Positions 20,938-64,000 of a stretch of DNA of 64,000 bases are shown one piece after another. Location: contig JAQVKM010000004.1 of assembly GCA_028694645.1 (NCBI GenBank), positions 79,365-143,364 on the forward strand. Reading direction: 5' to 3'. The notes beneath the pieces were generated by a model. The model ran no database searches and was not told the origin of the DNA. It saw only the letters and a program-made list of their open reading frames with translations. Origin of the DNA: Bacilli bacterium. GTDB lineage: Bacteria > Bacillota_I > Bacilli_A > RF39 > UBA660. Position 1 is the first letter of the stretch, and every line of letters begins with the position of its first letter. The translations under genes and the position numbers were made by a program.

Positions 20938-21414
20938 ATGATTAATATGACATATGACGAAGACGAGTTTTTACTTACCACTGAAGACAATGAATTTTTA
21001 ATAAAGAGAATAATTGAAATAGTTGATTTAAATAAACAAAGTGATGACTGTGTAACAATATTTTGTCATTACATTGATTGTAACATTGAAATATATTATG
21101 ATGGGTATATTTTAGATGGGTATATTTTCTTTATTGAAATTTGTAATCATAAGCAACCGTTATTAAAAAGATGCGTGAAATTTGCAAATAAATCTGAGAT
21201 GATAGCCTTAGCAGTTTTAATTTATGATAAATTTAAAGAAAATTTTGGAGAAGCTGGTTTTAGTTACAGAGATGATTCAATTGGCAGATGTTTTGCTTCT
21301 GGAAGTGTAAATTTTGATTTAGAAAAAGGTACTGGAATAAACTATGTTTGTTATGGAATAGATTATTGTGAATTTGTTAAAACAAATACAAAAGTTAAAT
21401 ATTTTATCAAATAA
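20938..21414 (+). CDS. hypothetical Cys-containing protein (upstream partner of radical SAM gene)
   Basis: AAAGGA RBS before the ATG at 20938 (the ORF track extends to 20884). ~158 aa with 8 Cys. No recognisable domain. Confidence 0.5.
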   Translation: MINMTYDEDEFLLTTEDNEFLIKRIIEIVDLNKQSDDCVTIFCHYIDCNIEIYYDGYILDGYIFFIEICNHKQPLLKRCVKFANKSEMIALAVLIYDKFKENFGEAGFSYRDDSIGRCFASGSVNFDLEKGTGINYVCYGIDYCEFVKTNTKVKYFIK

Positions 21415-50504: not shown

Positions 50505-51711
50505 AAATTTTTTTTGGAATATGATAGGCTCAACATTTAATGCATTTAATTCACTGTTTTTTATGGTTGTTGTAATAAGAATCAATGGCAGTGCTGATGC
50601 TGGTGTTTTTACATATTCATATTCAGTAGCTTGCCTCTTATATTATATTGGTATATATTTTGGAAGAACCTATCAAGTTACAGATACAAAAAAAGATTTC
50701 AGTGATAAAGATTATATATTCAATAGGTATATATCCATTTTTATAATGGTTATAATTTCAATAATATTTGTTGTAATAATGAAATTTGATAATTATAAAT
50801 CTTTAATTTTAATTTTATTAACTATTTATAGGGCAGTTGATGCATTAGCTGAAGTTTATTATGGTATTCTTCATAAAAATGAAAAATTGTATCTAGTTGG
50901 AATTTCTATGACATTAAAATCTTTATGTGGTTTAATATTATTTATTTTGGGTGATATTATATTCAAAAATATAATTTTAGCGTGTATATTTACCATATTA
51001 TTTAATTTAATTATTACAATTTTGAATGACAAAAGAAGGAGCAAAAAATATTTAGAAGAAGGAAATTCAAATTTTAAAAGTATTACAAGCATATATTTAA
51101 AATCATTTTTTGTATTTGCCTTTTCATTCTTGTCAATGTATATAGTGTCTGTTCCAAAATATTCAATGGTTAATTTACCGAATGAAGAACAGGCAATATT
51201 TGGAATAATAATGATGCCGGCAACTTTTGTTAGTTTGTGTGGATATTATATTATTAATCCATATTTAAATAAATTAACAGAATTTTATAAGAATAAAGAT
51301 AAAATAAATTTTGAATTGATTGTAAAAAAAATTTTACTATTTGTATTAGGAATTGGGGTGTTTGCTGAATTATGTGTATTTTCAGTAGCTATACCAATAT
51401 TAAATTTTGTGTTTAAAATAAATTTAAATGACTTCAAATTACAATTAGGAATAATAATTTTAGGTGCTGTTTTCTACACGGCAGGATTGGTATATTCAAA
51501 TGTATTGACAATATTCAGAAAGACCTTTGTTCAATTTATTATTTATGGTATAACTGCACTTGTTGGACTAGCTGTTTCTGTTGTTCTAATTTCTAATTAT
51601 TATCTGTTTGGAGGGACAATGTCATATTTTATTATAATGTCATTGCAATTATTATTGTATACAATAGTAACTAAAAGTATTATGAAAGAGGTTTTTAAAA
51701 ATGATAGATAA
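50494..51711 (+). CDS. Wzx-like oligosaccharide flippase (MOP superfamily)
   Basis: 405 aa with ~12 TM helices. Confidence 0.55.
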
Positions 51712-52285
51712 GATTGACTTAGTATTAAATGAACAAATAAACAATTTGAATGAATTGAAAAATAATAACTATAAAAATAAAATTATGGAAATCAGCAATT
51801 TGATTATTAATGCCATGAAAAATGGTAATAAAATTTTGATAGCTGGTAATGGTGGTTCAGCTGCAGATGCACAACATTTCGCAGCGGAATTAGTTGGAAG
51901 ATTTTGTTTAGAAAGAAAGGGACTACCGGCTATTGCATTAACAACCGATTCTTCTATTCTAACTTGTATGGGTAATGATTATGGATATGATTTTGTCTTT
52001 TCAAGACAAATTGAGGCACTTGGTAAAGCTGGTGATATTTTTATAGGAATATCAACAAGTGGAAATTCTAAAAATATTATTAATGCAACTTTAGAAGCAA
52101 ATAAAAATGGCATTATTTCAATATCTATGACAGGAAAAGATGGTGGAATAATTAAAGAAATAAGTGACTTTAATTTAAATTTTAATTATAAAGAAACAGC
52201 TAGAGTTCAAGAACATCACATAATGTCTATTCATTTAATTTGTGAGGCTGTAGAAAAAAAAATGAAGATATTTCAGGAGGGATAA
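51701..52285 (+). CDS. gmhA: D-sedoheptulose-7-phosphate isomerase
   Basis: SIS domain [19 protein letters not shown]...GISTSGNS. Confidence 0.8.
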
Positions 52286-52286
52286 A

Positions 52287-53516
52287 ATGAAACAAGGAAA
52301 TTATTTATCCAATAATTTTAGAAAAATATATGGTGTATTTCAGAAAAATTTATTCCTAAGAGATTTTAAAAATATTCTTTATTATGTTGATTTAATAATT
52401 CTGTTATTTATTGTTAAACCCAAAAAAATAAAATCACAAAAAAAGAAAATATTGGTTATTTATAATATGGCTTTTGGTGATGGCGTTATTTGGAGATGCA
52501 CATCTGTCCATTTAAACAAATTATACCCAAAGGAAAATTATGAGATAACTTTACTTTGTCAAAAAGGAATAAATAAATTGTATGAGAATGATGATACTTA
52601 CGATCATATTATTCCACTTGATTTTACGAAGGGAACTATTAGTTTGCCAGAGCGAATTAAAAACTTTAAAAAAATAAGAGAAGTATACTATGATTTAGTA
52701 ATTGACCCAATAGGAATAGTTGAGTGTACTACAAATGTTCTAATGACTAGAGCAGCTGTTGGAACAGAAAAAATTGGTTTAATTGATAAAGATGTTATTA
52801 TTCACTGTCCAAGACACATGACAAAAAAAATATATAATAAAATTATTGAAGTCAACGGCAAAGGAGTTTCTTTAATTGATTATTATGCAATATTTTTAAA
52901 GAAATTATCAAATGATAAATTAGATTTAAATGTTGGATATGAAAAAATAAAAACATATCCAACTAAAATAAAATTGCCAGAAAAATATTTTGTTGTATTT
53001 CCAAGTGCAAGTATGAAATTAAAAAGATGGGATATCTCCAAATACGTTGAATTATCTGGAAAAATACACGATAAAACAAAAATGCCAATTGTTTTAGTTG
53101 GTACAGTAGCTGATAAAGAAGCGATAGATCAATTCAAAAAGAATTTAAAAGTTCCCTTTGTTGATTTAGTTCAAAAAACAAATTTAAATGATTATATAAA
53201 TATAATTAAAAAGGCAGAGCTTGTTATAACTAATGACACTAGTGCTTATCATATCGCAGTAATTGAAGAAACCCCGGTTGCTATAATAACTGGTGGCTAT
53301 ACATATGATAGATATGTTGAATACAAATTTGAAAGAATGAATGAATTTAAAAAACCATGTATCATTGTAAATGAAATGAGCTGCTTCAATTGTGGAAATA
53401 GATGTCCTAATTTAAAAAAAGAGAACAGGAATTGGCCATGTTTAGAAAATATAACAGTTGATTTTGCTTGGAAAAAAATAGAAAAAATGATAAACGATGG
53501 AAAAATAGGAGAGTAA
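52287..53516 (+). CDS. glycosyltransferase family 9 (heptosyltransferase-like)
   Basis: C-terminal ITNDTSAYHIAV...ITGG matches the GT9 donor-binding motif. Confidence 0.6.
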   Translation: MKQGNYLSNNFRKIYGVFQKNLFLRDFKNILYYVDLIILLFIVKPKKIKSQKKKILVIYNMAFGDGVIWRCTSVHLNKLYPKENYEITLLCQKGINKLYENDDTYDHIIPLDFTKGTISLPERIKNFKKIREVYYDLVIDPIGIVECTTNVLMTRAAVGTEKIGLIDKDVIIHCPRHMTKKIYNKIIEVNGKGVSLIDYYAIFLKKLSNDKLDLNVGYEKIKTYPTKIKLPEKYFVVFPSASMKLKRWDISKYVELSGKIHDKTKMPIVLVGTVADKEAIDQFKKNLKVPFVDLVQKTNLNDYINIIKKAELVITNDTSAYHIAVIEETPVAIITGGYTYDRYVEYKFERMNEFKKPCIIVNEMSCFNCGNRCPNLKKENRNWPCLENITVDFAWKKIEKMINDGKIGE

Positions 53517-53517
53517 T

Positions 53518-54966
53518 ATGAATGTTGAAAAACTACGCGCAATAAATGATAAAAATATATTAGTTTTCGGTGATTATATGGTAGATAAGTATATTCTTGG
53601 AGATGTTAGCAGAATATCACCAGAAGCACCAGTTCCTGTTATACAAATGAGAGAAGAACAATGTAAAATTGGTGGAGCTGGCAATGTGATAAATAATATT
53701 ATTTCATTAGGTGCAAACGTAAAAGCTCTTGGTTGTGTTGGGGAAGATGAAGCCGGAAACTTCATAATTGATAATTTCAATAAAAATGATATTGATATTT
53801 TGCATTTTCGAAAAATGTCAAATATCAAGACTATATGTAAAACAAGAATTGTATCAAAAAAACAACAATTTTTAAGAATAGATGAGGAAAACATAAAGGA
53901 ATTACCATATGAATACTATGATTATTTAAATCAAAATATAGAAGATATTTTTAGTGAAATAAATCTTTTAATAATATCAGATTATGCTAAAGGAGCAGTT
54001 GTTGAAAAAACATCACAATTATTAATAAGAAAAGCCAAAGAAAAAAATATTCCTATAATTGTGGATCCTAAAGGCAATGACTACAGTAAATATTTTGGAG
54101 CAACAATTGTAACTCCGAATGTTAAAGAATTAAGTGACGTAGTTAAAAAAGAACTTTCAACAGAAGAGTCAATTATTATTGAAAGTGGTAAGTTATGTGA
54201 AAATTTTGGTTTTGACTATGTTATGTTGACGCGATCAGAAAAAGGTATAAGTTCAATTAATAAGGATTACGAGAAAAAAGATTTTCCTGCTGTTGCAAAG
54301 GAAATTATTGATGTTTCTGGAGCTGGAGATACAGTTGTTGCCACCATGGCATTAACAATGACATTGGGATTTTCAATTGAAGAAATGTGTAGAATTGCAA
54401 ATATAGCTGCATCAATCGTTGTATCAAAATTTGGAACTAGCACAGTGAATCTAAATGAATTAGTAAGCAATATATCAATTACAAGAGAGTTTAAATTATT
54501 AACTTCTGAAACAGCTGATTATATAATTGAATACTTAAGAGAAAATGGAAAAAAAATAGTTTTTACAAATGGGTGTTTTGATTTATTACATGCAGGTCAT
54601 TTATCCTCATTTAAAAAAGCCAAAGAATTTGGCGATGTTTTGATTGTTGCAGTCAATAGCGATTTATCTATAAAGAGAATAAAAGGAGAATTACGACCAA
54701 TAATAAAGGAAAAAGATCGTATTGAAATGCTTTGTGCATTAGAATGTATCGATTATGTGATTTTAATGGAAGATGATAATCCAATTGAATTATTAAAAAA
54801 ATTAAAACCAGATGTATCCGTTAAAGGAAAAGATTGGGAGAATAAAAATGTAGTTGAAAAACCAGTAATAGAAGAATATGGTGGAAAAATAGAATTTATA
54901 GATTTAGAATCAGGAATATCTACAACTACAATTATTGAAAGAATATTAAGAGCATATAATGAATAA
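53518..54966 (+). CDS. hldE: bifunctional D-beta-D-heptose 7-phosphate kinase / heptose 1-phosphate adenylyltransferase
   Basis: N-terminal pfkB-like kinase domain. C-terminal cytidylyltransferase-like FTNGCFDLLHAGH. 482 aa. Confidence 0.85.
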   Translation: MNVEKLRAINDKNILVFGDYMVDKYILGDVSRISPEAPVPVIQMREEQCKIGGAGNVINNIISLGANVKALGCVGEDEAGNFIIDNFNKNDIDILHFRKMSNIKTICKTRIVSKKQQFLRIDEENIKELPYEYYDYLNQNIEDIFSEINLLIISDYAKGAVVEKTSQLLIRKAKEKNIPIIVDPKGNDYSKYFGATIVTPNVKELSDVVKKELSTEESIIIESGKLCENFGFDYVMLTRSEKGISSINKDYEKKDFPAVAKEIIDVSGAGDTVVATMALTMTLGFSIEEMCRIANIAASIVVSKFGTSTVNLNELVSNISITREFKLLTSETADYIIEYLRENGKKIVFTNGCFDLLHAGHLSSFKKAKEFGDVLIVAVNSDLSIKRIKGELRPIIKEKDRIEMLCALECIDYVILMEDDNPIELLKKLKPDVSVKGKDWENKNVVEKPVIEEYGGKIEFIDLESGISTTTIIERILRAYNE

Positions 54967-55486
54967 AGTTATATTTTTAGATAGAGATGGAACTATTAAT
55001 TTTGATTCTGGTTATTTACATGAAATAGAAAAATTTAAGTTTTTACCGGGGGTTATTGATGGATTAAAATCTCTTCAAAATATGGGATTTAAGCTTATTA
55101 TTGTTACAAACCAATCTGGAATTGAAAGAGGATTTTTTAATGAATTTGACTATAAAATCTTAACTGATTATATGCTAAATGAATTAGAAAAAGAAGGAAT
55201 TAAAATAGAAAAGGTATATTATTGTCCTCATTTTTTTAGTAATTGTAATTGTCGAAAACCAAAATTAGAACTTTTTTATAAGGCAAAGGATGAATATGAT
55301 ATAGATTTTTCAAAGTCATATGCCATAGGAGATAAGAAAAGGGACTTGTCGATTTGCGAAAAAGAAAAAACAAAAGGAATACTTATTTCCTCTGAATTTG
55401 AGTCAATACAACTACAAGGGAATATAGCATTAGTCAAAAATTTTAAAGAAGCTGTTTTGCTTATACAAAAAAATGAAACAAATTAA
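54959..55486 (+). CDS. gmhB: D-glycero-D-manno-heptose 1,7-bisphosphate phosphatase
   Basis: HAD motif FLDRDGTIN. 175 aa. Confidence 0.8.
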   Translation: MNKVIFLDRDGTINFDSGYLHEIEKFKFLPGVIDGLKSLQNMGFKLIIVTNQSGIERGFFNEFDYKILTDYMLNELEKEGIKIEKVYYCPHFFSNCNCRKPKLELFYKAKDEYDIDFSKSYAIGDKKRDLSICEKEKTKGILISSEFESIQLQGNIALVKNFKEAVLLIQKNETN

Positions 55487-55504: not shown

Positions 55505-55545
55505 ACCACATGGTAATATAAATATTTACAAATGTGGTTTTTATT
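55505..55545 (+). terminator. terminator hairpin after gmhB
   Basis: CCACATGGTAA..TTACAAATGTGG stem followed by a T-run. Confidence 0.5.
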
Positions 55546-55579
55546 TATTTTTTATTGTATAATATGCATAGGTGGTAAT

Positions 55580-57496
55580 GTGAAAAAGAAATATAAATTT
55601 TTATTATTTGCTATTTTATTAATAGTGTTGAAACAAATTTTAATTAATAATTTGCCTATTTATGCAATTGGCAATAGTTCATGTGATGATCAATTAATGA
55701 TTATGATGGAGGCAAATTTATTAAAATTAAACTGGTTAGGAGATTTTAATAGTTTAACTTTAGTTAAAGGAATTTTTTTTCCATTTTTTCTTGCCGTTAA
55801 TGCCTTTTTGGGTATATCATATATAAATGGAATTACACTTTTTTACTCAATTGCATGTCTGATTTTTGTATATAGTATTAGAAAAATATTTCATAAAGAA
55901 TGGCCTATTTATTTAATATTTTTATTATTGCTATTTAATCCAATTATGTTTTCATTGGAAACAGCACAAAGGGTTTATAGGAATTCATTAACTCCGGGTC
56001 AAGTTTTATTAATTATGGCATCTATATTTGCTATGTTTATTAATAGAAAAAATAACAAGAATATATTATGGTGGTCTATATTTGGAGGAATATCATTAGC
56101 GACATTTTGGAATACTAGAGAAGATGCTATATGGATATTACCTTTTATTTTAGTTTTTACTATGATAATGATAGTAGAACATATTGTTACAAATAAAAAT
56201 AAATTTCAATTAAAAAAAATAATAATATTTATATTACCATTAATAATTCTTCAAACATTTAATATTGGTATTTCAACTATTAATTATATGAAATATGGTG
56301 TTTTTACGAGAGTTGATTTGAGTAATACTAATTTTAGTGAAGCTATTGAGGCGATATATTCTGTTCCAACTTATGATAATATAGAATATACTTCTGTTAC
56401 TAAAGAAAAACTTGAAAGACTATATGATATTAGTCCATCACTTAATAGCATTTCAGAAGAATTAAATGCTATTTCCATTTCAATGGATCAAAATGGTAGA
56501 ATTCCGAGTGATGAGCAAATAGAAGATGGATGGTTTTGGTGGGCACTAAGATTTGCAGCTGAAGCAAAAGGCTATTATGAGAATGCTATTAAAGCGGAGA
56601 ATTTTTTTGGAGATATAGTTAATGAAATAGAAACTGCACAAAAAAATGGTTTGATTGAAAAGCAGTCTACTATGCCATCAGCATTGATGAGCCCTTGGCG
56701 AGAAGGTTATTTAAAAAAATTATTTAATACTAGTCTTGAAATAATAAAATATACAAACAATTATACTGATGTTAATGCAATTGCTATGGAAAGTGTTGGT
56801 AGTTATAATTCAATTAAATTTTTCGAAATAGCTACCAATGATACAGCAATATATCCAGCTCAACTTTCAAATATTGAAGGATGGTATAGATATAATTATG
56901 AAGATTATTATATAATAGCAAATGTTAATAATGAAGCTTTAAAAAGAATAAATTGTAAAAAACAAGAAAATTGTGAAATAAATATAGATTTTAATATTAG
57001 CCAAAGTGATGAAACAATTAGTTTGAAAATATTTAATATAAATGATAGTTTGATTAAACAAATAAATATAGTTGACGATATAACATCTGAAATTGGAGAT
57101 AATTATTCTTATAATATTAATTTATCAAAAATTACTGATCCAAACATGCTTCAAAAAGAATTTTTGAATGTTTATGTTGGACGACTAAATATAATAGGAC
57201 TTCTTTATAAAAAAACAGGAATAATTTGTGGGATAATAGGACTTGTTTCATATATTGGAGTTACCATTATTGCTTTATTTAAAAATAAAAAAATTATAGA
57301 TAAATGGTTAATTTTGAGTAGTATTTTGGCTACATATTTGGTATTATGTATAGGAGTTTCATATAATCATATTTCATCTTGCCATTCCATTAGCTCTATG
57401 TATTTATCTGCTGCCTATTCATTAATAATAATTTTTTGGTCAATGTCTATATTTGTTTTGATTGATTATATAAAAGAAAAAAAATTAAATAATTAA
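55580..57496 (+). CDS. large polytopic membrane protein (possible GT-C-type glycosyltransferase)
   Basis: AGGTGG RBS then GTG. N-terminal ~10 TM helices, a soluble middle and a C-terminal TM pair. Confidence 0.45.
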   Translation: MKKKYKFLLFAILLIVLKQILINNLPIYAIGNSSCDDQLMIMMEANLLKLNWLGDFNSLTLVKGIFFPFFLAVNAFLGISYINGITLFYSIACLIFVYSIRKIFHKEWPIYLIFLLLLFNPIMFSLETAQRVYRNSLTPGQVLLIMASIFAMFINRKNNKNILWWSIFGGISLATFWNTREDAIWILPFILVFTMIMIVEHIVTNKNKFQLKKIIIFILPLIILQTFNIGISTINYMKYGVFTRVDLSNTNFSEAIEAIYSVPTYDNIEYTSVTKEKLERLYDISPSLNSISEELNAISISMDQNGRIPSDEQIEDGWFWWALRFAAEAKGYYENAIKAENFFGDIVNEIETAQKNGLIEKQSTMPSALMSPWREGYLKKLFNTSLEIIKYTNNYTDVNAIAMESVGSYNSIKFFEIATNDTAIYPAQLSNIEGWYRYNYEDYYIIANVNNEALKRINCKKQENCEINIDFNISQSDETISLKIFNINDSLIKQINIVDDITSEIGDNYSYNINLSKITDPNMLQKEFLNVYVGRLNIIGLLYKKTGIICGIIGLVSYIGVTIIALFKNKKIIDKWLILSSILATYLVLCIGVSYNHISSCHSISSMYLSAAYSLIIIFWSMSIFVLIDYIKEKKLNN

Positions 57497-59752: not shown

Positions 59753-59897
59753 TTATCGCTTGATAACTTTTTGTTTGATTAAAAATTATCATTAAAAGTG
59801 TAAAAAAAAGTAAACAAATACATTGTAATGTTTGATAATTAAAACAAAAAGTGTTATACTAAAAATGTATAAGTATTAATGTAAGGTGGTGAAGGTA

Positions 59898-60089
59898 ATG
59901 AAAGAAGCTGCTGGAGAAGCAAATATGACTGTAGTAACTATCATCTTAATAGGGATTATAGTTGCAGTTGTAACACCAATAATCAACAGTATGATGACAA
60001 GCACAGAAAAAAAAGCTTGTTGTATGAACAATGGTGGAACTTGGGAAAATGGTGGATGTGTTGGAGCAAGTTCTGAATGTGAAGAATAA
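59898..60089 (+). CDS. small membrane-anchored Cys-rich peptide (pilin-like?)
   Basis: AGGTGG RBS. 63 aa. Short charged N-term, one TM helix, then C-terminal KKACCMNNGGTWENGGCVGASSECEE. Confidence 0.45.
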   Translation: MKEAAGEANMTVVTIILIGIIVAVVTPIINSMMTSTEKKACCMNNGGTWENGGCVGASSECEE

Positions 60090-60106: not shown

Positions 60107-60559
60107 ATGAGACAAGCTATTGGAAGTGTACCAATGTACAATATAATAATGGTTTTTATAGTAATAACTTTCGGTTTCTTGTCTGCAACCTTAAGTTATA
60201 TGAAAGCTTTTAAAGTGAATGGTAGAATTGCAAAAGCATTAGAAAATTATGAAGGCTATAATATTCTTTCAAATAACGAAATAACTGAAACTTTATCTAA
60301 TATAGGATATAAAATAGGAGATGCAAGTAGTTATTCTTGTCCAACAAGAGATAACAAAGCAGCCGTTCAAGCTATAACAGGTAAAAATCATGTTTATTGT
60401 TTGTATGAATTAGATTATTATCAAAATGGAACAACAAAAACAAGATATTTTAATTATGGTATTGTAAGCTATATTTTTATAGATCTTCCTATAATTGGTG
60501 AAACAATAAAAGTTCCAGTTTATTCAGAAACAGAAAAAATATTTAGATTTTCTGCTTAA
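60107..60559 (+). CDS. N-terminally anchored secreted protein, TadE/pseudopilin-like (paralog 1)
   Basis: 150 aa with N-terminal TM helix. Conserved CP.R.N...YC.Y pair shared with the next ORF. Confidence 0.5.
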   Translation: MRQAIGSVPMYNIIMVFIVITFGFLSATLSYMKAFKVNGRIAKALENYEGYNILSNNEITETLSNIGYKIGDASSYSCPTRDNKAAVQAITGKNHVYCLYELDYYQNGTTKTRYFNYGIVSYIFIDLPIIGETIKVPVYSETEKIFRFSA

Positions 60560-60574
60560 TTAGGAGTTGATTAA

Positions 60575-61033
60575 ATGAAAGAATCTATAGGAAATGCCTT
60601 TATAATGGGAATAGTTATAACATTTATAATTATTTTCATGATTTTTTTTGCAAGTTCATTAGCATACACTAAGGCTTTTAAAGCAAAAAACAAAATAGTT
60701 GAAATAATCGAAAAATATGATGATATTTTAAGTCAAAGTGCATCAGAAAATTCTGTTTTAATTAATGCAGTTGAAGCAGAAATAAATGAGACTTTGTCTG
60801 GTATGGGATATCGTATTAGCCCTACTTCTAATAATTGTCCATCTAGAAATAATGTTTCAGCTGTTAGAAAACAAGAAACAGCAAATTATGAATATTGTGT
60901 ATACAAATATACAACAACTAAAGGAAATTATTATGGAGTAACAGCTTATATGTATTTTGAAATTCCTATAATAGGGGTTGGACTTAGATTTCCAGTTTAC
61001 GGAGAAACTAAGATAAGTGGAATTTTAGGTTAG
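60575..61033 (+). CDS. N-terminally anchored secreted protein, TadE/pseudopilin-like (paralog 2)
   Basis: 152 aa. Same architecture and Cys pair as the previous ORF. Confidence 0.5.
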   Translation: MKESIGNAFIMGIVITFIIIFMIFFASSLAYTKAFKAKNKIVEIIEKYDDILSQSASENSVLINAVEAEINETLSGMGYRISPTSNNCPSRNNVSAVRKQETANYEYCVYKYTTTKGNYYGVTAYMYFEIPIIGVGLRFPVYGETKISGILG

Positions 61034-61043
61034 GAGGAATTAG

Positions 61044-62048
61044 ATGAACGTAATTATTGCTAACAAATATCAATCGATGCTAGAAACATTAGAAATTGAT
61101 GTTATAAAAAAACTAGAAGGTGAATTTGAAGTTGAAGATATAATAAATCAATTTCAAAATTTTTTCTTTCAAAGAATGATTTTGGATATCACAGCTATTA
61201 AAGATTATCGTGATATTAAAACCTTACAAAAATTATCTATTTCATTAGATATGGATAAAGTTATATTATTATTAGACGATTCATCTGAGGGAACTTCTAA
61301 TGATTATTTATCAAAATTGATTTCAATGGGAATATATAATTTTACTAAGAACATAGAAGGAATAATGTATTTATATAATAATCCTAATTCATATCGTGAT
61401 GTTGCACATATACAACAATTAGATATGACATCAGGAGAAGAAGTTATTATAGAAAAATATGAACAAGCAGTAGTTGGAACTAGAATTATTGGTATTAAAA
61501 ATGTTACTAAACAGTCTGGTGCAACAACATTATCTTATATGATAAAAAATCAGTTAAAACAAAATTATTCAGTAGTGGCTATAGAAGTAAATAAAAGTGA
61601 CTTTAGATATTTTGGTGATAAATCACTTATATCTACAACTAATTTTGAAATAGGAAATCAAATTTCAAAATATAGTGATAATGATGTTATTATTGTAGAT
61701 ATAAATGATTCAAAACAAGCAGAAGATTTATGTCATGATGTTATTTATTTAGTAGAACCATCTATCATTAAATTAAATAAATTGATGCTAGTTAATAGTG
61801 GAGCATTTAAAGATTTAGCTAAAAGAGATGCAAAAGTAGTTTTAAATCAAAGCTTATTAAATTCAAAAGATGTTTTAGATTTTGAATATGAGTCTGGAGC
61901 TAAAGTATTTTATAATATGCCACCACTTGATGAAAGAGAAAAAAGTATATTCGCTTTAAATTCGTTTTTAGTTAGATTAGGATTTAATAAGCAAAAAGAA
62001 GAACAACAAGAAAAAAAGAAATCGCTTTTAAGCTTATTTAGCAAATAA
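61044..62048 (+). CDS. TadZ/CpaE-like protein: receiver-like N-domain plus degenerate ParA/MinD-like ATPase domain
   Basis: IGIKNVTKQSGATTLS is a degenerate deviant Walker A. The N-terminal ~120 aa have a REC-like pattern. Confidence 0.4.
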   Translation: MNVIIANKYQSMLETLEIDVIKKLEGEFEVEDIINQFQNFFFQRMILDITAIKDYRDIKTLQKLSISLDMDKVILLLDDSSEGTSNDYLSKLISMGIYNFTKNIEGIMYLYNNPNSYRDVAHIQQLDMTSGEEVIIEKYEQAVVGTRIIGIKNVTKQSGATTLSYMIKNQLKQNYSVVAIEVNKSDFRYFGDKSLISTTNFEIGNQISKYSDNDVIIVDINDSKQAEDLCHDVIYLVEPSIIKLNKLMLVNSGAFKDLAKRDAKVVLNQSLLNSKDVLDFEYESGAKVFYNMPPLDEREKSIFALNSFLVRLGFNKQKEEQQEKKKSLLSLFSK

Positions 62049-62124
62049 AAGTTGACTTTTTTTATTAAATAAAGTATTATATGATTGTAATGTTTAATTG
62101 TTTTAAACAAAGAGGAGGTTTATT

Positions 62125-62487
62125 ATGTTAGATATTTTAACTTGTACAGTTGGTGGAGTAGGAATGAGCAATGAAGCTTATGTAATAATTCCAAAAATTA
62201 CTGTTATGGTAGTTAATGTTATTAAAATCGTTATACCAATAATGTTAATAATATTTGGTATGCTTGATTTAGCTAAAGCTGTAATGACTAACGATGAAAA
62301 AGAAATGAAGGGTGCTCAAACAAAATTAATGAAAAGAGCAATCTATGCCGTTTTAGTATTCTTAGTTATCGCAATTGTACAATTATTGTTTGGCGCATTA
62401 GCTGGTTCTGCAGATAGTGATAGTGTTGATGGAAGTACTATTCAAGGATGTATCAGTTGTTTTGTTTCACAAACAAAAGATTGCTAA
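62125..62487 (+). CDS. membrane protein with TM-(D.K..K.A...LMKR)-TM module and Cys-rich tail
   Basis: AGGAGG RBS. The module is shared with the next two ORFs. Confidence 0.45.
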   Translation: MLDILTCTVGGVGMSNEAYVIIPKITVMVVNVIKIVIPIMLIIFGMLDLAKAVMTNDEKEMKGAQTKLMKRAIYAVLVFLVIAIVQLLFGALAGSADSDSVDGSTIQGCISCFVSQTKDC

Positions 62488-62584
62488 TATTAATATAGAA
62501 ATTATATGGAATTTATTCCATATTTTTTTTTATTATGATATAATGTATTTGTAAAAAAATATTTTTTAGCGTGGAGTGATATTT

Positions 62585-63637
62585 ATGAAAAAAATTATGT
62601 ATACATTTATATTAGTACTATTAGGATTTACATCTTTTAGTCATGTGAAAGCAGCGGCAATGTGTTCAACAAGGAATATAGATAGTTCAAAATGGTCTTA
62701 TGTTGAGACGATAACAAATAACAATCAACAATATTCAACAGTTGAAACATCAACTGAAAAAAGGGTTTGTTGTACAACAGGTTCTGGACAGACTTTACAA
62801 TATTATTGTGACAAATATTCTATTGTAGAAAATTATACTGCTCCTGAAGTTGAGGAAGAAATTACTTCCAATGATTTAGGAACATATGATATGCAATGTA
62901 ATACTATTAAGGGATTAGATTCAGAATGGAAATTTGATAAATGTGTTTGGTATTATCCTGCTTCTGCACCTTCTAATAAAGAAGTAATGGGTGTAGAAAA
63001 AGTATACTGTACAGTAGTTGGCTCAGGAGCAACTCAAAGAAGTCAATGTGATTATTTTACTTGGGAAGGGGATTTTGATTTTACTCAAAAACCAAGTAAT
63101 GCTATAGATACACCATTTGGAGCATGTGGAAATGTTGGTAATGATTGGACTTTTAATTATGCTATAACAAGTTCAACAAACATAACAACACAAACAGATA
63201 ATAGTAAAGTATGTTGTAATCAAACAGGAACTGGTGCAGGGACAACATACTTGTGTGATGTTTATGTAGATACTGAATATTATAATGATAAAAATGGTGA
63301 TGAAGATGAAGATATAGATACTTCTGTATGTTCAATTTTAGGTGGAGAAAACAGTGATACAATATTAATTATTAGAGAAATATATAATTATTTTACATGG
63401 ATCATCCCAGTATTAATAGTTGTTTTAAGTATTTTAGATTTTGTTAAAGTAATAGGCTCTGGGGATGACAAAGACTTAAAAGCTGCTGGAAACAATTTAA
63501 TAAAAAGAATTATAGTTGGGGTTGCTTTTTTCCTTGTTCCTTTATTAGTTAAATTATTTATTAATATTAGTGGAATTACTGAAAATATTACTGATGGAGA
63601 TAGTATTGTTGCAATAATAAGTTGCGTTTTAAAATAG
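62585..63637 (+). CDS. secreted Cys-rich repeat protein with C-terminal TM-(DDKDLKAAGNNLIKR)-TM module
   Basis: Signal peptide. Two copies of a VCC..G.G...Y.CD.Y repeat. C-terminal module as in the flanking ORFs. Confidence 0.5.
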   Translation: MKKIMYTFILVLLGFTSFSHVKAAAMCSTRNIDSSKWSYVETITNNNQQYSTVETSTEKRVCCTTGSGQTLQYYCDKYSIVENYTAPEVEEEITSNDLGTYDMQCNTIKGLDSEWKFDKCVWYYPASAPSNKEVMGVEKVYCTVVGSGATQRSQCDYFTWEGDFDFTQKPSNAIDTPFGACGNVGNDWTFNYAITSSTNITTQTDNSKVCCNQTGTGAGTTYLCDVYVDTEYYNDKNGDEDEDIDTSVCSILGGENSDTILIIREIYNYFTWIIPVLIVVLSILDFVKVIGSGDDKDLKAAGNNLIKRIIVGVAFFLVPLLVKLFINISGITENITDGDSIVAIISCVLK

Positions 63638-63648
63638 GAGATGATTAA

Positions 63649-64000
63649 ATGAACGATAAAGTAGGATTAGATATTATTAGATCAATATCTTCTGTTTTAG
63701 ATAAAGCAGTGTATTGGATAATAAGTATTGCATATGAAATAATAACTGAATTAGCACAAATAGATATATTTAAAGATACAACTGTTAGTGATTTTTCAAC
63801 AAGAATATATACTTTAATTGGTTTATTTATGATATTTAAAATATCGTTTGTATTAATCAATTATGTAATTAATCCGGGAAATATAACGGATAAAGAAAAA
63901 GGTGGAGCTAATTTAATCAAAAGAATTGTAATTACTTTTGTACTTATTATAATGGCCCCACAACTTTTTTCATTAATGACAAGAGCACAAAATGCTATAT
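63649..64000 (+). CDS. membrane protein carrying the same TM-(DKEKGGANLIKR)-TM module (3' end beyond window)
   Basis: ORF is open to the window end. GGAG RBS. Confidence 0.45.
   Translation, partial: MNDKVGLDIIRSISSVLDKAVYWIISIAYEIITELAQIDIFKDTTVSDFSTRIYTLIGLFMIFKISFVLINYVINPGNITDKEKGGANLIKRIVITFVLIIMAPQLFSLMTRAQNAI

Follow-up and report, generated by a model that had tools for sequence, protein, structure and literature searches.

Do three consecutive genes at the end of a Bacilli contig, which seem to repeat one short membrane module, form a single family, and does this module belong to a secretion machine? The window, i.e. the whole stretch of 64,000 nucleotides analyzed here, covers positions 79,365 to 143,364 of the forward strand of contig JAQVKM010000004.1 (assembly GCA_028694645.1). 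It comes from a metagenome-assembled genome (MAG) labelled "Bacilli bacterium" with a GC content of 24-28%. The last 4 kb consist of co-oriented open reading frames (ORFs) with good ribosome-binding sites. An earlier sequence-only reading had drawn attention to three of them, here called p1, p2 and p3, and proposed a family built on a common unit: a transmembrane (TM) helix, a short charged loop and a second TM helix. The three peptide strings behind this proposal are present in plus-strand ORFs at 62125, 62585 and 63649.

The module is shared by p1 and p2, whereas p3 is a VirB6-like protein which is not detectably related to the module. The most probable reading, to which we assign a rough probability of 0.6, is that p1 and p2 are paralogous VirB2-like "T4SS pilin" subunits of the PF18895 type. 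They would form the pilin array of a monoderm type IV secretion system (T4SS) resembling MPF_FATA systems and those of mycoplasma integrative and conjugative elements (ICEs).

The shared module

The C-terminal 107 residues of p2 are homologous to p1 (BLASTP E 7e-13, 32% identity over 111 aa). The alignment extends beyond the loop and spans the whole of p1, including the cysteines of the N- and C-terminal tails. By sequence comparison, p1 and p2 are true relatives and constitute one family. The register K..A...L.KR, described earlier as invariant in the three genes, holds in p1 and p2; p3 fits it only when a one-residue gap is introduced. The picture of one module attached to very different N-terminal regions has to be revised: p1, with only 120 aa, is essentially the module itself, and the corresponding hairpin of p3 occupies residues 43-119 of 652 aa.

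The p1 family comprises 84 close homologs with 42-75% identity, in which D48, A52, K62, Q65 and F79 are invariant while C7, C109, C112, C120, K70 and R71 are near-invariant. For p2 just 6 homologs were found, because its ectodomain varies. A hidden Markov model (HMM) was built from p1- and p2-type modules and run over 88 loci. It recovered 227 ORFs, with P38, D48 and K62 each conserved in 96%, R71 in 97% and F79 in 90%. Their consensus reads C..G...P...VPILLIIFGMLDL.KAV...KEDEIKK.Q..FIKRLI.A..VFFV...C..CF. In a full HMMER scan of 1.84 billion cluster representatives, the limit E<=1e-3 was passed by 8,807 proteins, of which 4,281 also passed E<=1e-10.

The bare module is the commonest form, as 138 of the 227 ORFs do not exceed 150 aa; extensions are N-terminal in 79 and C-terminal in 10. 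Among the cluster representatives, the module lies at the N-terminus, in the middle or at the C-terminus of proteins of 100-536 aa. It is fused to unrelated ectodomains, namely Cys-rich domains, Big_2, NlpC/P60 and esterases. Orphan module genes also occur outside any T4SS cluster (L052 4469-6882, L048 9869-10696, L059 9887-10270). Some of these are fused to Big_2 and NlpC/P60, and ValRS, YfhO, EngA, LepA and SecDF are found among their neighbors.

Family assignment and predicted topology

The Pfam family PF18895 (T4SS_pilin) is described by a model of 71 positions with a gathering threshold of 26.6 bits. This threshold is passed by p2 with 29.8 bits (residues 259-325, model positions 4-71), and p1 is linked to the family only via its match to p2. 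Sub-threshold matches are given by 68 of the 84 p1 homologs (best E 7e-5). The same holds for 77 of 150 distant representatives, with a best E of 3.6e-8.

The AlphaFold2 model of p1 is a two-helix hairpin (pLDDT ~90; helix limits in Table 1). With 6 K/R and 4 D/E its tip is basic; the tails, which hold conserved cysteines, are acidic. An orientation with both termini outside and the tip in the cytoplasm would fit this distribution of charges and cysteines, the signal peptide of p2 and the occurrence of extensions at either end.

A fixed position among secretion genes

The gene order around the module is fixed in the 79 fetched loci and in further ones. A ~1000-aa Cys-rich secreted protein is followed by DUF5411, CpaB/RcpC, a T2SSE ATPase, two membrane proteins, an Flp-like protein, two TadE-like proteins and a TadZ-like protein. 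Beyond the latter come one to six pilin-module genes and then VirB6-like, VirB3-like, split VirB4, wall hydrolase(s) of the NlpC/P60 or glucosaminidase type, a lipoprotein and VirD4. In adjacency counts over non-redundant loci, the first module gene lies less than 300 bp from the TadZ-like gene in 74/74 loci, so that the suggestion to check whether the module always neighbors this gene received a positive answer. A VirB6-like gene begins less than 300 bp after the last module gene in 68 of 71 loci. The arrays contain two genes in 43 loci, four in 22, one in 12, three in 8 and five or six in 3 (88 loci).

The genes of p1 and p2 are thus located inside a T4SS cluster, next to virB3, virB4 and virB6. 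VirB4 is split in all loci into a ~182-aa TraC-like N-terminal ORF and a 594-aa ATPase ORF (L001 4601-5122; L002 13413-15745), and the VirB4 N-terminus matches the NCBIfam Mbov_0397 type (E 5e-16). The genes after p3 can be followed on an identical 5.1-kb contig (L001), where a 106-aa two-TM gene overlaps the start of the VirB4-type ATPase gene, i.e. its first, TraC-like ORF. This 106-aa gene is VirB3-like. A VirB3-like role of the TcpE/ConC type for p1 was rejected because this slot is taken by the 106-aa gene.

A family of ~370 aa which lacks the module, and which has a single TM helix at the N-terminus and cysteines in its ectodomain, is found in 30 loci, within or just after the array (e.g. 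L045 8773-9858, L015 10374-11495); in L015, L047 and L084 it stands between the last module gene and the VirB6-like gene. The ~1000-aa secreted protein which opens the full cluster ahead of DUF5411 (L004 537-3518 and counterparts) has no family match.

Proposed assembly and its main alternative

If p1 and p2 are pilin subunits, each module would insert into the membrane as a hairpin of helices whose two ends face outward and whose Lys/Arg-rich tip lies in the cytoplasm, and the conserved cysteines of the N- and C-tails may form extracellular disulfides. The major subunit would be p1, the bare module. A minor, surface-displaying subunit would be provided by p2, in which the module is preceded by a signal peptide and by a variable ectodomain, acidic and rich in Cys, which could serve adhesion or target recognition. 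The subunits would dock on, or assemble at, the platform of VirB6-like (p3), VirB3-like and VirB4 proteins encoded directly downstream. The product is predicted to be a wall-spanning conduit or a short pilus-like structure passing a VirD4-coupled substrate. A precedent is given by the divergent VirB2-like pilin arrays which lie beside virB4 in Patescibacteria.

Several observations weigh against a pilin. First, p1 itself stays under the PF18895 threshold (16.4 bits, E 0.0095). Neither p1 nor p2 matches PF04956 (TrbC/VirB2) at E<=1, and a p1-family profile run against PDB sequences returned only noise from G-protein-coupled receptors (GPCRs) and no pilin. Furthermore, the name of PF18895 is an annotation and not a test, and no monoderm protein of this family is known to form a pilus or polymer. 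The predicted helices of p1, with ~38 residues each, are to our knowledge longer than those of known VirB2 pilins. Lastly, a plain anchor would account equally well for the enzyme fusions (NlpC/P60, esterase) and for the orphan copies next to housekeeping genes. Structural comparison gave no specific fold match, with no solved conjugative pilin among the matches listed, and no pilin-like NCBIfam model was matched by p1 or p2 at E<=1. The relationship to VirB2 therefore rests on PF18895 and on context. The earlier comparison with VirB2/TrbC-type pilins gains from the PF18895 match of p2 and from the location directly upstream of the VirB6-like, VirB3-like, VirB4, hydrolase and VirD4 genes; membership in PF04956 was not detected. 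Overall, the earlier interpretation is partly supported: p1 and p2 are pilin-like and T4SS-associated, but the three genes are not one family.

The strongest competitor is an anchor. Here the module would not polymerize but would tether diverse ectodomains to the membrane, perhaps to the T4SS, and p1 would be an accessory two-helix subunit with a role like that of TcpD, TcpE or ConC. The range of cargo suits such a function, with adhesin-like Cys-rich domains, Ig-like domains and wall hydrolases joined N- or C-terminally (Big_2 and NlpC/P60 among them), as do the orphan genes which stand off the T4SS beside ValRS, EngA, LepA and SecDF. The same fusions to unrelated ectodomains agree with the shared docking or sorting element which the sequence-only reading had offered as an alternative to a pilin. 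The absence of solved pilins from the listed structural matches may also speak for an anchor, and T4SS of Gram-positive bacteria commonly contain small proteins with two TM helices which are essential. However, the VirB3-like slot is already filled, and the best conserved form of the module is the bare one, whereas an anchor with nothing attached would be pointless. In addition, the cytoplasmic tip of the hairpin is so highly conserved that a specific contact with a machine is suggested, and PF18895 membership also argues against an anchor. We regard an anchor as possible, on the unlikely side.

The third gene encodes a VirB6-like protein

The hairpin of p3 which had been taken for a third copy of the module consists of helix 43-74, a loop and helix 86-119. 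As a third paralog, p3 is rejected on the basis of five comparisons. In BLASTP, p3 matches p2 over just 37 aa (E 2e-4, a single pair), and its match to p1 is not significant. Alignment of the p1 family with the p3 N-terminal family by hhalign gives a probability of 4.5% (P 0.009). When the module HMM was applied to 120 N-termini of the p3 family, the median was 1.7 bits, compared to 3.3 bits for reversed sequences. None of the VirB6-like ORFs in the 88 loci (77 loci carry one) was matched by this HMM at E<=1e-3. In a scan of all ORF segments of the window, p3 ranked 22nd with E 3.1 and 1.7 bits. The p3 N-terminal hairpin does not match PF18895 at E<=1 either.

Instead, p3 is a VirB6-like platform protein. 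Its residues 1-350 align as a single unit with TrwI/VirB6, it has a polytopic fold like TrwI/DotA, and its gene is positioned ahead of virB3-virB4, as expected for the VirB6/TrbL group. The scores stay below the curated cut-offs (conj_pls20_p028 38.5 vs 150, Mbov_0396 35 vs 70, TrbL_4 19.7 vs 27), and some p3 orthologs carry a precomputed PF19597 match. The orthologs have a motif of their own, Y..NPD...DK.KG......N. The arginine R92, which gives rise to "LIKRI" in the p3 of the window, is replaced by asparagine in at least 90% of them, and "LIKRII" is also present in an unrelated soluble ORF at 20998. The likeness of the p3 loop to the module would then reflect the positive-inside rule together with local coincidence.

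One could still imagine that all three genes descend from one ancestral module and that the N-terminal hairpin of the VirB6-like protein is a built-in "pilin mimic" which nucleates assembly. The p3-p2 match includes an identical LIKRI, hhalign places the same KG..K.IK.. stretch of the two families opposite each other, and both proteins follow the topology helix, basic cytoplasmic loop, helix. These points are met by the poor HMM scores listed above, by the replacement of the shared arginine, by the gap which the motif needs and by the alignment of p3 with TrwI/VirB6 as one unit, which together make such an origin very improbable. A mere low-complexity hydrophobic similarity in an AT-rich genome has a negligible probability and is refuted for p1 and p2: spurious sub-threshold matches of p1 to GPCR, MscL and AgrB models do show that hydrophobic bias inflates scores, but polar, charged and Cys positions are kept in hundreds of orthologs and thousands of representatives, synteny is fixed, and the sequence-only reading's own scenario of similarity without conservation fails for p1 and p2 because the module is conserved in 227 ORFs and 8,807 representatives.

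The upstream Tad-like genes and the distribution of the cluster

A full Tad-like set stands upstream in 58 loci and forms one contiguous Tad-like and T4SS cluster (L004 3515-9927 etc.). The neighborhood lacks the ATPase and platform genes in 8 loci, this window among them, and CpaB, TadA, TadB and TadC genes are absent from the 64-kb window. In the relatives, RcpC scores 32.3 against a cut-off of 28.8, CpaB is recognized by TIGR03177 (E 1e-12) and T2SSE is present. The labels TadB, TadC, TadE, Flp and TadZ were given by size and position to genes with no significant family match. In the window, the family assignment of the Flp- and TadE-like genes is weak (Pilin_N E 0.004; no TadE Pfam match). 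The TadZ-like protein is the best conserved of the cluster, with 71% identity to the L004 copy. It has no Pfam, NCBIfam or PDB sequence match and its name therefore stays positional. Its degenerate Walker A motif suggests a pseudo-ATPase.

A p1 relative was found in 253 species-representative genomes; for the cluster itself, confirmation comes from those ~70 of 79 retrieved loci in which the flanking genes are present. The carriers are labelled uncultured Bacilli, Bacillales, Tenericutes, Mycoplasmatota, Erysipelotrichaceae or Candidatus Pelethosoma, with a few Muribaculaceae, and most of their genomes come from gut or rumen samples. Housekeeping genes flank the cluster (rhodanese/DedA/RmuC, SOD/PBP, ScpA/ScpB, YfhO). 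No relaxase, integrase or DDE transposase was seen among the recurrent neighbors and flanks; as only ~2 kb past VirD4 were seen and several proteins have no family match, their absence is not proven. The cluster border shows neither a GC break nor a tRNA.

A broader picture can be drawn, which we consider rather doubtful. The pilin array would belong to a vertically inherited, relaxase-less chromosomal machine in which a Tad-like type IV filament and a monoderm T4SS are fused. This machine would be widespread among uncultured gut lineages of Bacilli or Mycoplasmatota-like type. Its VirB2-like conduit or pilus would serve cell-cell interaction, for example to take up or exchange DNA or nutrients or to make epibiotic/parasitic contact, and not the spread of mobile elements. 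The machine would then be the Bacilli counterpart of the essential pair of T4SS and type IV pilus in Patescibacteria.

Comparison with known systems

The likeness to PF18895 lies in a ~70-aa two-helix hairpin domain. The present branch differs by its N- and C-tails, which carry Cys and are conserved, and by a charged tip which is longer and highly conserved; most of its members fall below the Pfam cut-off and many carry large ectodomains.

VirB2 exposes both termini on the outer side. With VirB2, TrbC and TraA of diderms, which form the T-pilus and F-pilus, the module has in common a small hairpin of two hydrophobic helices with a basic loop, and a gene located upstream of virB3/virB4/virB6-type genes. 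In contrast, p1 has no cleavable long leader, and there is no outer membrane to cross.

In Patescibacteria, arrays of 2-11 divergent VirB2-like pilin genes occur near virB4; the array of Southlakia epibionticum has six genes and is essential. The likeness is one of gene arrangement: a monoderm MPF_FATA-like T4SS and tandem pilin-like genes of divergent sequence, located on the chromosome with no relaxase in the vicinity. Type IV pilus genes also matter to the Patescibacteria. However, the Tad-like pilus genes are physically joined to the T4SS genes in the present cluster and the hosts are low-GC gut MAGs of Bacilli or Mycoplasmatota-like type. Southlakia has no recognizable VirD4, whereas a VirD4 coupling protein is encoded here.

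Mycoplasma ICEs resemble the locus in that p3 matches the Mbov_0396 (TM) model and the VirB4 N-terminus the Mbov_0397 (VirB4) model. Locus-tag numbering implies the same order of pilin-like (Mbov_0395), TM and VirB4 genes. However, p1 and p2 match no pilin-like NCBIfam model, and the locus is not on a recognizable ICE. Within the VirB6 family (TrwI of R388, DotA, pLS20_p028, TrbL_4), where only p3 is concerned and all scores are below the curated cut-offs, p3 is distinguished as an "extended VirB6" by a large extracellular insert (120-224) and a ~300-aa coiled-coil C-terminal extension. Lastly, the IncI R64 thin pilus and PAPI-1 also employ type IV-filament and T4SS genes for one transfer system; here the Tad-like and T4SS genes constitute one contiguous, co-oriented monoderm cluster which includes VirB2-like genes too.

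Layout of the window's end and neighboring genes

The features of the region are listed in Table 1. The Flp-like gene opens the cluster in this genome, and the ORF of p1 is preceded by an AGGAGG ribosome-binding site. The promoter-like site ahead of p1 might allow the pilin genes to be transcribed from within the cluster, as an internal promoter. The consensus scan found no more such sites in the region than in shuffled controls, and no terminator was found in the same scan.

Table 1. Features at the end of the window (window positions; residues refer to the encoded proteins)
Feature	Position	Strand	Description
Flp-like small pilin	59886-60089	+	Matched to the L004 counterpart by tblastn; opens the cluster in this genome
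Two TadE-like paralogs	60107-60559, 60575-61033	+	Matched to the L004 counterparts by tblastn
TadZ-like gene	61044..62048	+	334 aa; directly upstream of the pilin-module array; named from position and degenerate Walker A KQSGATT only
Promoter-like site TTGACT-17-TATTAT	62052..62080	+	Inside the 76-nt gap before p1; from a consensus scan only
p1	62125..62487	+	120 aa; core pilin-like protein, essentially the bare module; NCBI PHN42_03970 is identical
p1 layout			N-tail with Cys7; helix 17-55; charged hairpin tip DLAKAVMTNDEKEMKGAQTKLMKRA; helix 58-94; C-tail with C109, C112, C120
p2	62585..63637	+	Pilin-module protein, 350 aa counted from ATG; NCBI PHN42_03975
p2 layout			Signal peptide 1-25; acidic ectodomain with 12 Cys, ~26-243; whole p1-like module at the C-terminus, 244-350
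p2 module copy	63314-63634	+	Residues 244-350
p3	63649..64000	+	VirB6-like polytopic membrane protein of 652 aa (full length read from L001), of which the window holds the first 117 codons; continues past the window end

Further upstream, positions 51701-55486 hold a set of heptose pathway genes: a SIS/GmhA-like protein, a GT9 heptosyltransferase, an HldE-like bifunctional kinase/adenylyltransferase and a GmhB-like phosphatase. In a very low-GC, monoderm-type Bacilli MAG this set suggests heptosylated surface glycans. It is followed at 55532-57496 by the gene of a 654-aa polytopic membrane protein which is absent from the otherwise syntenic relative L002; this gene is a lineage-specific insertion or deletion among envelope-glycosylation genes.

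Significance

According to reviews, Gram-positive T4SS lack VirB2-type pilins, and Patescibacteria alone are an exception (PMC12857230, PMC4027160). In the literature consulted, we found no description of a Tad-T4SS-pilin cluster in RF39-like Bacilli. Since Pfam already contains a model of the module family, the latter is not a new category; the array is of the same kind as those of Patescibacteria, in a different lineage. The interest lies in the conserved architecture of Tad-like genes, T4SS and pilin array in Bacilli, with an array of PF18895-type modules in a fixed T4SS slot of uncultured gut lineages, outside the patescibacterial exception. Should the subunits fail to assemble, a large family of 8,807 representative clusters has nevertheless gained a clean annotation, and no library has a name for its member p1. 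If they do assemble, the rule that monoderm T4SS have no pilus would be wrong more broadly than thought, the paralogs with variable ectodomains would become candidates for partner recognition, and the lifestyle of uncultured low-GC gut lineages would be open to experiment.

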